Shown here: piece after piece, positions 20,401 through 29,400 of the stretch
Numbering within the stretch: position 1 is the stretch's first letter
How the letters are laid out: each line of letters opens with the position of its first letter
Source: Bacteroidales bacterium
GTDB taxonomy: Bacteria; Bacteroidota; Bacteroidia; Bacteroidales; CAIWKO01
DNA: 32,903 nt
Assembly: GCA_035389045.1 (NCBI GenBank)
Contig: DAOORA010000053.1
Span: forward strand, 1-32,903
Direction of reading: 5' to 3'
Position numbers: made by a program

Positions 20401-23400
20401 AATGCGGGCACAACAAAGTCCCCATCAAAGGCCTATGTTCATTCCCTTTATCAATGACGTATCCGTTGTGGTTTAAATCCAGCATTTTCTGAACTTTCAG
20501 GAATTCATCTTCTGTCACCATTTGCGCCCAATTGCCTTTTACTGGTTCCGGCAGCATCCTGTTTACACTAATTCCACAATAAAAAGGATTCCGCCACATG
20601 GCAGATAATGATTGCTTGTTTATTTTCAGCCCCCAGCAATCAAGTTTTTGCCTGATTGAAGTATCGGTATAACCTTGCAGTTTTAAATTCCAAGCTTTTT
20701 TCAGCAGCAAACCCTCCTCATTAATGATAATTTCCTGCCTGCCTTTTATCAAGTTAACATCCTTGACCCTTGTACCATAATGGCTATAACCTCTCGGTGA
20801 ATGACCAAGCCAATTGCCCTGCTTTAGAAATTCTATCATGCCCGGTTTGGTTATATCCAATCTGTCGAGGTTATCTTTACGTGCTGCCAGCAACTTATCA
20901 TAAATCTCTATCTTTCCTCTTTCGGTTTCCGTAGAGGCTCCTGTTGAAGCTTCAATCAGGTGAACCCTGTAATTATTAATCAAGGTTGTAAGCAAGGCTA
21001 TTGCATCGCCACCTGTCCGTGAGAACCTGTTTATCTTATAGACCAATATGGCAAAAGGTTTTACTTTCATGGTCTTTACCTTTTCCAACAACCGCTGAAA
21101 CTCTTTCCGCGACATATCATCAGAGGCGCTCTCATAAGTATAACCAAATTCTTCGAGAATGTTATAATTCTTTTGAGCGGAAAATCTTTTAATAGCATTC
21201 GCCTGATTTGACAGACTGAAGTTATCAAACTGGTCTTTTGAAGACACCCTTGTGTACAATAATACATAGTTATTATTGTTGAAAGCTGTCGTATCGTTTT
21301 TGGGCTTCATGAAGCCCCTGAAACGCTCAATATTACTGGTTTTCATAATATTCAAAAATTATGGATGAACATTGATAAATATTATCTGCAAGTATATCCA
21401 ACTCTTCGTCGGTTAAACTTTCAAATTCTTTGTATTTTCTTATTTCTTCTGGTGTAAGTTTTATTTCATTTTCGTGAACATCATTTTTGTTTGACATTGG
21501 TTTGGTAATGCAACATACCGCCAAATTGTTTTATGGTGGGTACGCCGTATAATATAATATATAAGTAAGAACATCCTACTTTTTTATTATTTCTTTTACA
21601 ACAAACTCAACTGAGGTTATTTTACCGTAATGCTGTTTTTCATTCATCTCGCAATAAGGATATTTTAGCTTTACTTTCTTTTTCCATTTGTGATATTCAT
21701 CTGGCTTATATTGCATTTTCATTTTTCCTGAAAGCATGGTCATATCCTTGTCTTTTTTGATCACTATTTCCTGAAAATCTTCTTTTTTCATAAATGCAAG
21801 CAGCTGGTTTTCTTTTTCGGTAAGATACATGCAGCTTGCGGAATACTTCTGTTTTTCTTTATCATTTAAAAACTCATAATACAACTTTGTTATTGAAAAA
21901 TAAACGTGGGTTTCATAGAAAAACATTTTTCGTTTGCTGTCAAACTCTAAAAGCTCATCTAAATAAGGTATTATCTGGTCTTTTTTTATTAGTATTCCGA
22001 ATTCTTGCTTATAGTCCATTGATGACAAAAGAAGTATTTCAAATAAATTGAATTTAATATGCTTATAAAGCTCCTCAAAAACGGTATCGGAGTTTATCAT
22101 AGATAATAATGTTTCCTTTTCTTTATCATTCAGTGTCGAGTTTTTGATCTCTAAAATTGACTTTTTGTAACGCTCGACAAGCAACCTGCTTTCAGTACCT
22201 GCTTTTGCATCATTTAATATTATTTGTAATTCATTCGGGTCAACCTCTGCAAACAATTTCTTTTTTACTGCTACAATAATTTCATAATGGATGCCGAAGT
22301 CTCGCATTTCTTCAACACATTTCAGCCATAAAAACTCTATAAATGACAAAATTTCCCATTTACGTTTTATATTTTTTGTTTCAGGACTCAAAACCAATCC
22401 ACTTGTTTTCCAATGGTTATATACTCTCGCTGAAACACCTGTTTCTTTTAACGGGATTTGTTTTGTGTTGAGGTTAAACAGAAAATCTATTTTTTCTGAG
22501 GTGAAAGGGCTATTATATGCTTTAACCAACATGTTTTCAAATTTCATTACCCGGATTTTTAAATTTTTAAGTTAAAAGCGTTTTTATCGCACAAATGTAA
22601 TATAAAATTTATATTTTACAACAAACGAACAAAAATATTTTTTTATTATTAAGAATAATCAGAACCGGAGCTAATACCAATAGCCAAAAATGAAAAATTT
22701 GAAATTTCTGGCGGCCAAAGTTATTATTACCATCAAAAAGGGGTTCATTCCAAGTTTGATCAAGGCGAAAATGGTAACTGATTATAAAAAATGTTCTTTG
22801 TACCAACCAAAATCGTTTCAGACAACCAAAATAAACCTCACATCAACATAAAATAGCTCAAAATAATGGTTCCCTCTTCAAAATCAACTCAAACATACCT
22901 GCAAATCACCTGAAATTTTCTCTGATTACCTGTAATATGGTTTTAGGAAATGAATAATGAGCATTTTTAGGTCGCAAAAGCCCTACTTTGGCCATTTACA
23001 TTTCAATTTCAGGTCTATTGAATTAATCATGAGGGCGAAATGTACAAAAATGATAGGGTTTTGTATAAATATGTACAAAAATTGACAGGGTTTTGTACAA
23101 AAATGTCCATAATCGTCCAATTTTGTACATTTTCGTCCATATTTGATAGGTTGTTGATCGTGAGGGTTGCTCAGTTGTTGGTTTTTTGTGGGCTTGAAGC
23201 ATGAATTATGCACCTTTTCATAAAATAAAGACATTTATAAAGGTCAAAAATGGGTTTCGCGGGAAAATACATGACCAATTCAAAAAAAAATCACCAAGCA
23301 TCTTTTACTTTGTTTTTTTTACACATATTTCTTAAAAATGTATCTTTATCATTCCGAAATAAACCTAAAAAATGATTAAGCCCATTATTGTCAGCCCCAG

Positions 23401-26400: not shown

Positions 26401-29400
26401 AACCAGCCTGTTTGAAAAAAGCAAAGCTGAAAAAGCAGATTGGAACAAACAGGTTAAATCACTAACTACTGATATTCAAAAACGCGAAACCGAACTTGAA
26501 GAAATTAAAAACAACAAAATTTACGAAAATGCTTTTGAATGGCGTTTTGAGTTTCCCGAAGTTTTGAATGATGATGGGGATTTTGTGGGGTTTGATGTGG
26601 TGATTGGGAATCCGCCGTATGGTGTTTCTATTAAAGGACAAGAAAGAGATTTTCTTATTAATGATATTGGGAAAGTCCCAGATTATGAAATCTATTATTG
26701 GTTCATCAATAAAGCAAATTTAATTTTAAGAAAAGCAGGACAATTCTCTTTTATAATTCCCAATACTATACTTTTCAACCTATTTGCTGAGAACTACCGG
26801 TTGGCAATGTTTGATAATTGGCATTTTGAAGATGTGTTGGATTGTACAGAAATTCCCATTTTTACTGATGCGACTGTACGGAATGTAATATTATTACTTA
26901 AAAAGGATAAGAATGGTGATAAAATATTATATCGAAACACTAAAGATATTTCAAATTTTTTTGAGATTGTTGGTAGACCTAAGTTAACTATTATGAAGGA
27001 TTTTATCGAAAATAATAATCAGAACTGGGGTTTATTATTCAAATTAGATGAAAAAGTTCTTTTAATTATTTCGAAATTGAAAGCAAATTCGGTAAGTTTA
27101 AATTCAATTTTCACAGAAACAAGCCAAGGATTAATAGCTTATGATAAATATAAAGGTCAGAGTGAAGAAATAATAAAAAATCGAGTTTATCATTCATTTG
27201 AGAAAAAGAATAATGAATATAAGCCATGGCTGTATGGTGAAGATGTTACCAGATATAATATTAGATGGAATGGGAAAGAGTATATTAATTATTGTTTAGG
27301 TATAGCGAATCCACGAGACCCAAAATATTTTGTCGGGAAGCGGATATTAATTCGGGAAATTACTAACCCTCAAATTTACGCATCCATTACAGAAGAAGAA
27401 TTATATAATGATCCTGCAATAATTATCATAAAAGAAAATCCTGCAATTTTTAATTTAGAGTTATTACTTGGGATTTTAAATTCAAAACTGGCAACATTTT
27501 ATCATTTCAATTCTTCACCAAAAGCATCAAAAGGAGCATTCCCAAAAATTCTCGTTTATGATGTTAATAATTTCCCTCTGCCAAAAAACATTGACAGAAT
27601 AATAGAAAATAAAATTACAATTTTGGCAACGGAAATTCTAACGATAAAAAAAGCCACCCCTACCGCTGACACCACCGAATTAGAATCCGAGATAGACCGG
27701 CTTGTATATGAGTTGTATGGGTTGACGGAGGAGGAGATAAAGATTGTGGAGGGAAGATAAAATTATATATAATACTATGGGAACATTAAAAACAGATAAA
27801 TGCTTTATTACAGACCTACCCGCATTCAATTTTGATCAAGGGATTTCAGTCTATGAATACACAATTGATATAAATGGAAAAAAGGTGGCTTTATACTTTA
27901 ATCAAGATGCTGAGAATTGGAATAAACACGATGTTTTTTTATCCAAAAAACACATTTTTGCAGGAGCTTTAATTAATGGGAAATTACTCGATGAATCTAA
28001 GGTTTTCCCTGTTATTACGGCAGACTTTTTATTTAATAGAATTAAAGAAATGGTTTATCCTTCTTCTCCAAAAGAAAAGTTAGATAACCTATTTAAAACG
28101 TTAATTTCATTTCAAAATAGTGAGGGTGATAGTATCTTCCTCCAAAGACTTGTACCTGATCCAATATTTTATTTTGGGCATTATTTTAGATCACGAGAAG
28201 AATGTATGTTTTATTTTAAAACTCTAATTGAACAGAAATTAATAAATGCAAAATTAAATATTGATCCTCAACATGGCCATAATAATATTCTTTATGCTAA
28301 TATTACATTTAAAGGGCTCAATTACTATCTGGATTTGATTGACAATGGGAAACTTTCTAACAAATGTTTTGTGGCCATGTCATTCACTCCTGAAAATCAA
28401 TTGCTAGTCAATATTCGCAATTCAATCAAAGAAGCTATTGAAATCACTGGATTTAAACCAATTCTAATAGATGAGGTTCACTACGATTGCGAAAAAACAA
28501 TTAATGATGCTATAATTGCGAACCTAAAAGAATGCAAATTCTGTATAGCTGATTTTACGGAACAAAAAGATGGGGTATATTTTGAAAGTGGGTTCGCATT
28601 AGGTCAGGGGAAATCGGTGATTTACACTTGCAGGCAAGAAGATTTTGAAAAATCACATTTTGACACGAACCATTTTCCGCATATCATTTACAATAACCCA
28701 GATGAATTAAAACAAAAGCTTATTGATAAAATTAACGCATGGATAAAATAAAGGATTAAATAGCTTAAAATTATGTCCAAAGACAACGCAAAAACTATTT
28801 TCGTTATAGATTTCGACAAGATTAATGATCATATTGCATGGTTAAATAGCAACAGGTGCAAACATCATGATTATAAATCTTACCCTGCCAAGCTCCTAAA
28901 AGTTGATTTCCATGCTTGTAATTTTCTTAAACCTTATCATATTGCTCCACTGGCGTGCCTGATTTATGAATACCAGCAGAAAGGGTTTGTTATAAAACTT
29001 ATCAATATTCCTGCGGCTATTAAGGACTATTTTGATGCCTTTAATTTTCAGCAATTTTGCAAGCAAGAACCCTATAACCACTTTCCCACACCCTTAGATT
29101 CCAAAATACTTCCATTATGGCGAATTGAACAAACCGCCATAAGTGTTTACCCCGCAGAAGCCCAACGGTATTTTGAAAATCTGCATTTCGACAGCAAAAG
29201 TTTATTTTCATTGAGCAGCTCATTGGCGGAACTGATGAATAATGTTTTTGACCATTCAGAATCAAAAATCCCGGGTTATACCTTTACACAATATAACACA
29301 CGAAATAATGAAATCACATCTTGTGTCTGTGATTTCGGAATTGGAATACCACGAAAGGTCAATAAATATCTTTCGGAAAATAAACTTGAAACTATTGATA

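Follow-up and report, generated by a model that had tools for sequence, protein, structure and literature searches.

The restriction-modification gene and its two in-frame inserts

The window, i.e. the whole 32,903-nucleotide stretch of a Bacteroidales contig that was analysed (genome G000), contains a restriction-modification (RM) gene whose 1462-aa reading frame is free of internal stops and hosts two in-frame inserts (Table 1). Pfam assigns DUF7149 to residues 8-244, DUF7814 to 245-471 and DUF559 to 556-658, as well as Eco57I MTase and TaqI_C domains, and PADLOC classifies the protein as type IIG (E 2e-226). The host domain order is DUF7149-DUF7814-Eco57I-type N6-MTase-TaqI_C, with a PD-(D/E)xK motif at D76/E94-x-K96, as judged by eye, and intact DPAVGSG (764-770) and NPPY (1080-1083) motifs; with nuclease, N6-methyltransferase and specificity domains on one chain, the protein is predicted to be a genuine type IIG enzyme. 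The divergence of its target-recognition region from that of the orthologue is an ordinary specificity swap. Two other studies supplied contigs that span the insert's boundaries with 0 differences: X2 crosses the left junction (24823-25015) and X3 the right end (25480-25642). An assembly artefact is thereby ruled out as the source of the insert.

Table 1. Features of the RM locus (positions in the window; G017, same-genus orthologue)
Feature	Position	Strand	Details
Type IIG RM gene, host of both inserts	23372..27760	+	1462 aa
Site-1 in-frame cassette	24916..25570	+	~residues 515-733; net +215 aa; alignment with G017 stops at 24915
Left end: two hairpin-plus-G-tail units, tails toward the nuclease	24925..24990	+	copies at 24925 and 24961; 36-nt period
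DUF559 / Vsr-like nuclease domain	25022..25393	+	Pfam 556-658; folded domain ~551-674
Right end: two reversed hairpin-plus-tail units	25491..25554	-	copies at 25504 and 25537; 33-nt period
~20 host-like codons 3' of the cassette	25571..25627	+	match other filled alleles, not the orthologue
Site-2 solo array, three left-end-type units, in frame	26003..26097	+	net +30 aa
Target-recognition region	26621..27610	+	unrelated to G017 counterpart; 38-60% in forced alignment

The genome-wide survey's note had reported an orthologue without either insert, and G017 indeed lacks both in its 1197-aa frame, while sharing 84.8% DNA identity with the window over 23315-24915. The site-1 cassette lies between the FFTP motif and MTase motif I, and the anchor distance across it is 282 codons in G000 vs 67 in G017; the insert described in that note as some 230 codons between opposed hairpin repeats is in frame and its repeats are opposed, but its net length is 215 codons. 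The picture of a clean insertion did not hold, as about 10 host codons are replaced in the alignment with G017, that comparison revealed no target duplication and the next ~20 codons mismatch the orthologue. These flanking codons, which are 0.59 identical to filled alleles and 0.27 to G017 (0.75-1.0 to G017 elsewhere), travel with the cassette. An IS-like insertion was ruled out by the missing duplication and the moving flank, and the combination of target-site duplication with a DDE or Y1 transposase, expected of an IS or MITE, was not found.

The cassette is bounded by inward-facing repeats, each unit of which consists of a perfect 7-9-bp C-rich/G-rich stem, a 2-nt loop and a G-rich 3' tail. 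At the left end the repeats are translated into a peptide that is predicted to be disordered (pLDDT <50). The solo cluster claimed to lie in frame further on was recovered as site 2, ~1 kb beyond the cassette, where the anchor distance is 54 codons in G000 vs 24 in G017; its units start at 26003 and 26038, with a degenerate one near 26068, and the structure model suggests that this array is disordered too. The core repeat pattern has six matches in G000, all within the host gene, beyond which the repeats have not spread in this genome. The earlier statement that they occur nowhere else thus stands for the core pattern, although looser scans detected five tail-less hairpins outside the gene; the tail-less hairpin at C47:4332 could be a decayed copy. 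The host gene also carries the sole DUF559 of G000. The hairpin energies given previously (-41 to -73 kcal/mol) apply to RNA, whereas as DNA the repeats reach -18 to -31 kcal/mol and only the left array beats shuffled sequences (z -2.2; others -0.4 to -0.5). Folding energies mostly reflect base composition and were dropped as evidence. Rfam returned five weak matches, all well under the gathering score.

The DUF559 domain, previously placed at residues 556-658, was found there again with a PF04480 score of 94 bits vs a cut-off of 20.6 (E 4.8e-27); it misses the YcjD equivalog cut-off (57 vs 218). Residues Q589, D598, E609, D611, H615 and D624 are intact, and D598, H615 and D624 would provide the catalytic D, H and D. 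The modelled domain (pLDDT ~87-95) matches the structures 3hrl (E 3e-15, rmsd 1.7 A) and 3r3p (rmsd 2.9 A). In the model of residues 440-1200 (pTM 0.42) the MTase core is poorly resolved, and this model can be taken as support only for a DUF559 that is folded and flanked by disordered linkers, and not for an MTase left undisturbed. When the empty G017 protein was searched by sequence against solved structures, 0 matches were obtained. The six catalytic positions are retained in 71-72 of 72 embedded and 34-35 of 35 free copies, and pN is far below pS in all 13 pairs. Most pairs show saturation at synonymous sites, which makes most of the moves old.

Filled and empty sites across RM alleles and other proteins

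The loop of the site-1 insert is occupied by a DUF559 cassette in 45 of the 47 long RM homologues found, but most alleles lack it (it is present in 3 of 65 scorable RM loci). On the host tree, filled alleles are interspersed with empty ones, with 22 changes among 100 rows, compared with a mean of 30.5 and a minimum of 24 for shuffled labels, so that the label is still somewhat clustered; since RM genes recombine, such changes are not event counts. The trees of this analysis, for hosts and nucleases alike, were quick and FastTree ones. The cassette has nonetheless been gained or lost across RM alleles together with its short 3' flank. A single origin of the site-1 nucleases was rejected (p-AU 9.2e-5), and the site has been used by at least two nuclease lineages. 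A placement of the window nuclease as a third lineage, sister to MetH inserts, had support of 87-94 but was not significant (p-AU 0.061) and is not claimed.

At site 2, the cognate repeat was found in 22 of 39 filled vs 2 of 63 unfilled alleles, by a peptide pattern composed after inspection of the data; the filled alleles contain near-duplicates, and when these are collapsed by eye on the host tree the count becomes about 14 of 30. In a close relative (P0002) the left and site-2 arrays are both expanded with one unit type, and another allele (L071) has a doublet without a nuclease at site 2. Both loops of the RM family house several unrelated palindrome families, including RAYT-type ones without DUF559, and GTAG-type palindromes occupy site 2 in other alleles. 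Both loops are thus general traps for unrelated palindromes.

The insertion had been regarded as one case. In a survey of 250 Bacteroidia genomes (103 with a DUF559 match, 147 without), however, 31 internal in-frame cassettes were identified among the 35 long-frame DUF559 matches retrieved, the other four being a frame with a run of N (L143), a repeat-extended solo copy (L149) and two N-terminal fusions (L142 and L144). Together with two proteins from the set of long homologues, these cassettes occupy 17 sites in 12 host proteins, including the sole LeuRS and IleRS, MetH, MutS and RecG, and reside in frame in variable loops. The hosts are 124-269 aa longer than their G000 homologues at a gap of 0-26 aa (26 of the 35 gave paired matches). 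The interrupted LeuRS is the sole strong LeuRS match in all five genomes tested, and the interrupted IleRS is the sole PF19302 match in G226 and G068. In G054, the copies in Acs and MetH are sisters (support 98, dN 0.089, dS 0.52) and 83% identical, and its MetH also has a solo repeat at a site filled by whole cassettes in L119 and L141. These sister copies, the 31 of 35 internal cassettes and repeat-flanked free genes argue, at the sequence level, for the earlier proposal of a mobile unit, made up of DUF559 and repeat, that proteins tolerate within them. In one DUF559 lineage 47 of 55 matches, including all of the top 31, lie in frames >300 aa. That this housekeeping clade is exclusively embedded is not claimed, as 8 of the 55 are short frames and G017 carries a free-standing DUF559, which has a similar N-terminal motif.

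Hairpins and DUF559 are closely linked. Within 250 bp of 75 DUF559 domains, hairpins occur at 3.64/kb vs 0.084/kb elsewhere in the same loci (43-fold), and at 0.013/kb in RM loci without DUF559. The hairpin finder used placed them on both sides of 47 domains, on one side of 18 and on neither side of 10, and most free-standing DUF559 genes are hairpin-flanked too. End orientation is clade-specific: tails point outward at 36 of 37 ends in one nuclease clade and inward at 46 of 57 ends in that of the window (7 outward, 4 undecided). At least three copies of the core pattern were present in 40 of the 103 DUF559-positive vs 14 of the 147 negative genomes, counts that ignore kinship although relatives are not independent. 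The tested pattern had zero matches in 46 of the positive genomes and at least one in 37 of the 'negative' ones; three of the 147 negatives hold a DUF559 detected only by another query. The view that solo repeats are mostly intragenic was contradicted by G168, in which the 15 sites examined out of 26 lie between genes or at gene ends, and by G054, where 3 of 18 pattern matches are solo repeats within genes. The ycjD gene (DUF559) of E. coli K-12 terminates within a hairpin of the same kind, and a full hairpin-plus-tail lies ~170 bp downstream; the E. coli repeat beside ycjD is presumably BoxC.

Comparison with known systems

REPtrons (RAYT/TnpA-REP with REP/REPIN/BIME) likewise consist of a nuclease gene between cognate, inverted, asymmetric palindromes, and passages of PMC6006769 and PMC8266576 describe dispersed solo repeats and doublets with a patchy distribution. 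Cognate inverted flanks with dispersed copies are also found for the DUF559 family, albeit without dispersal within G000. The host gene, however, contains no Y1_Tnp (HUH/Y1 transposase), and instead of a 5' GTAG (or CnGA) foot the repeats have a 3' G-rich tail. In-frame palindromes (Rickettsia RPE, intragenic GTAG/CGTC REPs, BRE) are translated within proteins, as here, and reach DNA-repair enzymes and tRNA synthetases according to parts of PMC3733652 and PMC3184786, but they are short and encode no enzyme, whereas here a whole nuclease domain lies between the repeats. EDxHD homing endonucleases (I-Bth0305I; fractured genes) share the Vsr-like fold and catalytic spacing of the window domain and are described in passages of PMC3239194 and PMC2677866 as invading conserved genes. 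They possess NUMOD DNA-binding regions and occupy separate ORFs in introns or between split inteins; the cassette has neither an N-terminal NUMOD region nor an intron or split-intein context, and differs in lacking any binding domain or splicing element, in having terminal repeats and in residing in unrelated target genes.

Like the cassette, inteins are in-frame inserts that carry a nuclease, reside in essential enzymes and occur as filled and empty alleles. In contrast to inteins, the cassette lies in variable loops and is apparently permanent; no Hint domain was found in the window protein and 16 hosts, and the junctions show no N-terminal C/S and no C-terminal HN followed by C/S/T. As for group I/II introns, no Rfam match reached the gathering score and, under thin RNA cover, no joint skips the insert. 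E. coli YcjD is free-standing, unlike the cassette, and shares the neighbouring hairpin type; in open-access text, no paper linking ycjD to the repeat was found. Vsr and Caulobacter VsrA belong to the same fold group as DUF559 (passages of PMC3424549 and PMC1189080), and C-terminal DUF559 fusions to SPOUT methyltransferases are noted in part of PMC1829167. By comparison, the window DUF559 has no link to a C5 methylase and is internal rather than terminal, and repeats are not discussed in the passages concerned. Consistent with the earlier literature search, open-access text yielded no paper that deals with embedded DUF559 cassettes or with repeats flanking DUF559, although the supplements of PMC3733652 and PMC6006769 may contain loci of this type.

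Origin and spread of the cassette

The observations are best explained, in our moderately confident view, by a REPtron-like system built on a PD-(D/E)xK nuclease, which spreads its repeats and itself by nick-and-recombine and is tolerated in surface loops. Its unit would be a compact gene for a Vsr-like (DUF559) nuclease with copies of its own asymmetric repeat, a hairpin with a G-rich tail, on either side, and solo repeats and doublets would be the non-autonomous form, comparable to REP/REPINs for RAYT. The nuclease may recognise the hairpin-tail structure and nick there or nearby. A Vsr-type hydrolytic nuclease cannot join DNA, and therefore host repair must be invoked: repair of the nick would copy repeats locally, as in site 2 and the array expansions, and could also copy the whole cassette into a repeat already present in another allele or gene, with the repeats and adjacent conserved host sequence providing homology. 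Survivors would be landings that keep the frame in a tolerant loop, where translation would presumably add the cassette to the protein as an extra domain, tethered through disordered linkers and not spliced. Because G000 has no other DUF559 or other full repeat, its cassette was most likely acquired as a short stretch from a different RM allele. We infer that the nuclease is active, that the cassette is mobile, with DUF559 itself driving its movement, and that it is not spliced out.

An alternative that we regard as unlikely, yet the strongest competitor, is that DUF559 is a domesticated repair-type nuclease that benefits the host, the hairpins being spread by Y1 transposase or replication slippage and the cassettes moving passively by repeat recombination. 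Strong purifying selection and old divergences would suit such a role, as would Caulobacter VsrA, which contains DUF559 and, according to part of 10.1101/2025.03.21.644545, causes an SOS response in cells without a cytosine methylase; eight Y1_Tnp matches in G000 and the GTAG-type palindromes at site 2 of other alleles point the same way. The window repeats, however, have no 5' GTAG foot, and passive movement leaves unexplained why end orientation tracks the nuclease clade, why cognate repeats at site 2 occur mainly beside a cassette and why up to 10 copies are found in one genome. Recruitment of DUF559 as a functional domain of the RM subfamily, an extra nuclease for defence or mismatch repair, would account for an architecture common to 45 of 47 long homologues of a defence gene, but the host is an N6-adenine methylase (NPPY) and not the C5 methylase that Vsr serves, only 3 of 65 scorable loci have the cassette and like cassettes occur in tRNA synthetases and MetH, which makes this explanation very improbable.

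Classical homing without an intron or intein, in which the endonuclease cleaves an empty RM allele at site 1 and enters it by copying and co-conversion, the hairpins being relics, seems improbable, if slightly less so than recruitment. The fold and active-site spacing equal those of I-Bth0305I (D196, H213, D222, gaps of 17 and 9; here D598, H615, D624), and the same site is filled in scattered alleles, beside a highly conserved stretch and with a one-sided co-travelling flank. Co-adaptation of that segment or ordinary recombination between alleles would account for the flank equally well, the cassette comprises the catalytic domain and one short helix without an N-terminal NUMOD region, and the 83%-identical copies in Acs and MetH occupy unrelated targets. 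Hardly any probability is given to removal of the insert through an overlooked step of splicing or processing, at the RNA or the protein level and perhaps with the hairpins as guides. The paired hairpins at its ends could base-pair or undergo cleavage in RNA, and essential hosts would benefit, but no Hint domain or Rfam family above threshold was detected, and junction residues vary freely while the frame is always kept. One contig from an RNA library spans 25065-25529 without a single difference, and no joint bypasses the insert, a weak indication from contigs only; in RNA runs X4 and X7, likewise contigs and with DNA perhaps present, no contig spans a junction, and the contig ends at 24914 and 24894 are not counted as evidence. 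The contig comparison covered four of the 11 runs listed.

Returning to the REPtron-like system, it may tentatively, and with less confidence than the mechanism itself, represent a hitherto undescribed kind of selfish element, in which a minimal Vsr-like nuclease has its own hairpin repeats as target, homes to repeats pre-seeded in tolerant loops and persists unspliced as a permanent domain of essential proteins, one lineage mostly so. The mobiliser still missing for the repeat family beside E. coli ycjD might be this nuclease as well. Such a reading offers DUF559, a very common domain whose function is unknown, a testable role, puts forward a candidate mobiliser for a widespread GC-rich bacterial palindrome family and suggests a definite way for proteins to acquire entire domains along with disordered linkers. 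The cassettes show that a nuclease gene can inhabit single-copy essential genes without an intein or intron, and in the RM family of the window, alleles with one loop empty, holding a solo repeat or filled form a natural series. Several RM homologues with DUF559 are misannotated as 'very-short-patch-repair endonuclease' because of the embedded cassette.

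The interrupted restriction-modification gene

In the window (C53:1-32903), the type IIG restriction-modification (RM) gene carries a DUF559 cassette (the domain plus its repeat-coded flanks) in one loop, site 1, and a solo repeat array in a second loop further 3′, site 2. As the genome-wide survey's note had claimed, the domain lies between opposed repeats, each unit being a hairpin (perfect C-rich/G-rich stem, 2-nt loop) followed by a G-rich tail on its 3′ side. The claimed confinement of the repeats to this gene holds for the core pattern (6/6 matches in the source genome, G000), and the genome's only DUF559 copy is the one in this gene. 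The hairpin energies quoted in the note are RNA energies; only the left array is unusual when compared with shuffled sequences. Both cassette ends are bridged by contigs of two other studies, with 0 differences.

Features of the RM gene, its cassette and its repeats
Feature	Position	Character	Basis
Type IIG RM protein, 1462 aa	23372-27760	ORF	domain searches
DUF559 domain	residues 556-658 of the 1462-aa protein		profile match
Left repeat end, two units	24925-24990	tails toward nuclease	
Right repeat end, two reversed units	25491-25554	tails toward nuclease	
Site-2 array, three units	26003-26097		

An RM orthologue is present in one of the 22 other genomes of the family (G017, same genus); synteny holds upstream of it, and neither insert is there, as had been stated. 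The insertion is in frame, but instead of the 230 or so codons first proposed the net difference is 215 codons at site 1 (30 at site 2), with about 10 host codons replaced at site 1. Identity with G017 is 72-92% per 100-base bin as far as 24915 and returns near 25625, and there is no target duplication. Taken alone, the pair fits gain in G000 or loss in G017 equally. The approximately 20 residues 3′ of the cassette show an identity of 0.59 to filled alleles (those with the cassette) versus 0.27 to G017, while the rest of the two aligned stretches is far nearer G017 (0.75-1.0), so the cassette travels together with a short stretch on its 3′ side, as recombination or co-conversion would produce.

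When residues 440-1200 are modelled with AlphaFold2 (62 rows; pTM 0.42, methylase core resolved in part only), DUF559 is folded (pLDDT ~87-95) and flanked by disordered repeat-coded linkers, and the site-2 peptide is likewise disordered. The closest fold match is 3hrl (rmsd 1.7 Å), with I-Bth0305I at 2.9 Å; the spacing of D598/H615/D624 equals that of D196/H213/D222 in I-Bth0305I.

The RM gene probably sits on an integrated element, because a tyrosine integrase (18426-19514) and a large serine recombinase (19595-21355) lie upstream (17250-22547, minus strand) and are common to G017 at ~85%. Three to four imperfect TGTACA-centred palindromes with ~32-nt spacing (23040-23135), perhaps operator sites, also precede the gene. 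The genes 3′ of it (27744-30604, plus strand) are without counterpart at the G017 locus and possibly form a small defence cluster: a 335-aa protein whose C-terminus is weakly nucleoside-deoxyribosyltransferase/TIR-like, an orphan of 303 aa, a STAS-like protein with DUF4325 and a second orphan of 168 aa.

Linkage of repeats and nuclease

The association of repeat and nuclease is established. Around 75 DUF559 domains, the hairpin density beside the domain (139 in 38 kb) is 43 times that of the remainder of these loci (26 in 308 kb), 10 of the 75 being without an adjoining hairpin, and the orientation of the hairpin ends tracks nuclease clade. In a survey of 250 other genomes of the class (the unpublished genome G193 among them), 103 gave a DUF559 match; at least three core-pattern copies occur in 40/103 of these versus 14/147 of the remainder, a comparison based on a single pattern and non-independent kin, with three of the 147 negatives false. 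Most solo copies lie between genes or at the ends of genes, and some are in frame.

Escherichia coli K-12 ycjD terminates in such a hairpin, with a tailed copy ~170 bp downstream that adjoins fabI (L155:1540-2261, fabI-ycjD); the repeat is probably BoxC. Among loci L151, L152 and L153, two genomes (G117, G115) have free DUF559 genes in tandem pairs that are separated by hairpins, and G243 has two identical DUF559 copies 1.5 kb apart and no hairpins.

Cassettes in the RM family and in other hosts

The single case of the note has become many. Among 80 RM loci (the best 80 of 569, from an N-terminal query that could not see the insert), site 1 is filled by a DUF559 cassette in 3 of the 65 scorable at both sites (L035, L047, L059), and solo palindromes occupy it in others. 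A DUF559-domain query against proteins of 804-2559 aa gave 47 matches, 45 of them RM proteins filled at site 1 (window included) and two MetH. Turnover is evident on the host tree (FastTree, N-terminal 330 aa; 100 rows: 38 filled, 13 short-insert and 49 empty, six near-duplicates excluded), where filled and empty alleles are interleaved with 22 changes, against a shuffled mean of 30.5 and minimum of 24. A single origin of all site-1 nucleases is rejected (p-AU 9.2e-5), and separation of the window nuclease from the main site-1 group is not significant (p-AU 0.061), both on 34 hand-picked rows. The cognate repeat is found at site 2 in 22/39 filled versus 2/63 unfilled alleles (redundant rows, pattern set post hoc). 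Site 2 of other alleles holds at least five other repeat types in frame, GTAG-type palindromes and heptamer repeats among them (L007, L008, L012, L016, L017, L022, L032, L040, L059, L064, L083). The close relative P0002 has ~ten units in its left array and ~six at site 2, all of one type, a pattern that points to fast, concerted change.

That DUF559 and repeat form a mobile unit tolerated inside proteins is upheld by other hosts. Frames >300 aa hold 35 of the 149 other DUF559 matches listed (69 more exist); all 35 loci and five short ones were fetched, and 31 of the 35 contain internal in-frame cassettes with repeat-coded flanks. The hosts are LeuRS (11, two sites), MetH (5), IleRS (3), MutS (2), RecG (2, two sites), type ISP RM (2) and, singly, HsdR, acyl-CoA synthetase (Acs), CinA, TsaB, a mutase-MeaB fusion and the window's RM family, named by Pfam for 16 proteins and otherwise through common flanks or a common G000 homologue. 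Including the two MetH proteins of the long-protein search, the total is 17 sites in 12 hosts. The Acs copy as query gave 55 matches, 47 in long frames (46/54 without G193), the top 31 all long. In 5/5 genomes tested the sole strong LeuRS match is the interrupted protein, and for IleRS the interrupted protein is the sole match in two genomes of 100% completeness (another genome's is split over contigs), so these inserts are tolerated or else removed. The active site is retained, catalytic positions being intact in 71-72 of 72 embedded copies, and purifying selection was detected in 13/13 nuclease pairs tested.

DUF559 also stands N-terminal to RsmA/KsgA (L142:2516-3772) and to a diphthamide-synthase-like protein (L144:1817-2956), joined in each by a repeat-coded linker.

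Possible mechanism and relation to known systems

We consider it reasonably probable that the substrate of the nuclease is its own hairpin-tail. The nuclease would recognise and nick this structure, after which host repair would copy repeats nearby, or the cassette into a repeat already there; landings that keep frame in tolerant loops would survive, and the insert would then be translated as a tethered domain. Less likely is a domesticated repair nuclease that is moved passively, for which Caulobacter VsrA speaks (10.1101/2025.03.21.644545). Classical homing is improbable: the cassette has the fold of EDxHD homing endonucleases but is without their binding region and without intron or intein. 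It is still less probable that a domain was recruited by RM enzymes, given hosts such as LeuRS and MetH, and hidden splicing is scarcely credible, no intein domain having been found by Pfam in the window protein or 16 host proteins.

Under the favoured reading of nicking and copying, the system would work in the manner of REPtrons (a RAYT, i.e. HUH/Y1, enzyme with REP repeats), but it has no HUH/Y1 enzyme and no GTAG foot and thus falls outside REPtrons. Solo palindromes in frame within proteins and DUF559 fusions at protein termini have already been described. The open-access literature searched yielded no account of DUF559 flanked by repeats or of cassettes embedded in proteins, which is not proof of absence. 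We rate the novelty as lying in the architecture, a nuclease cassette with repeats embedded in proteins; a mechanism that would make it a class of its own is a tentative proposal, somewhat more doubtful than not.

A second type IIG-like gene of the source genome (C12:16119-19778, minus strand; 1220-aa frame) contains an in-frame Y1_Tnp domain (C12:17655-17963) with repeated palindrome-coded peptides, directly before the NPPY motif, and this insert is the RAYT counterpart of the DUF559 cassette.
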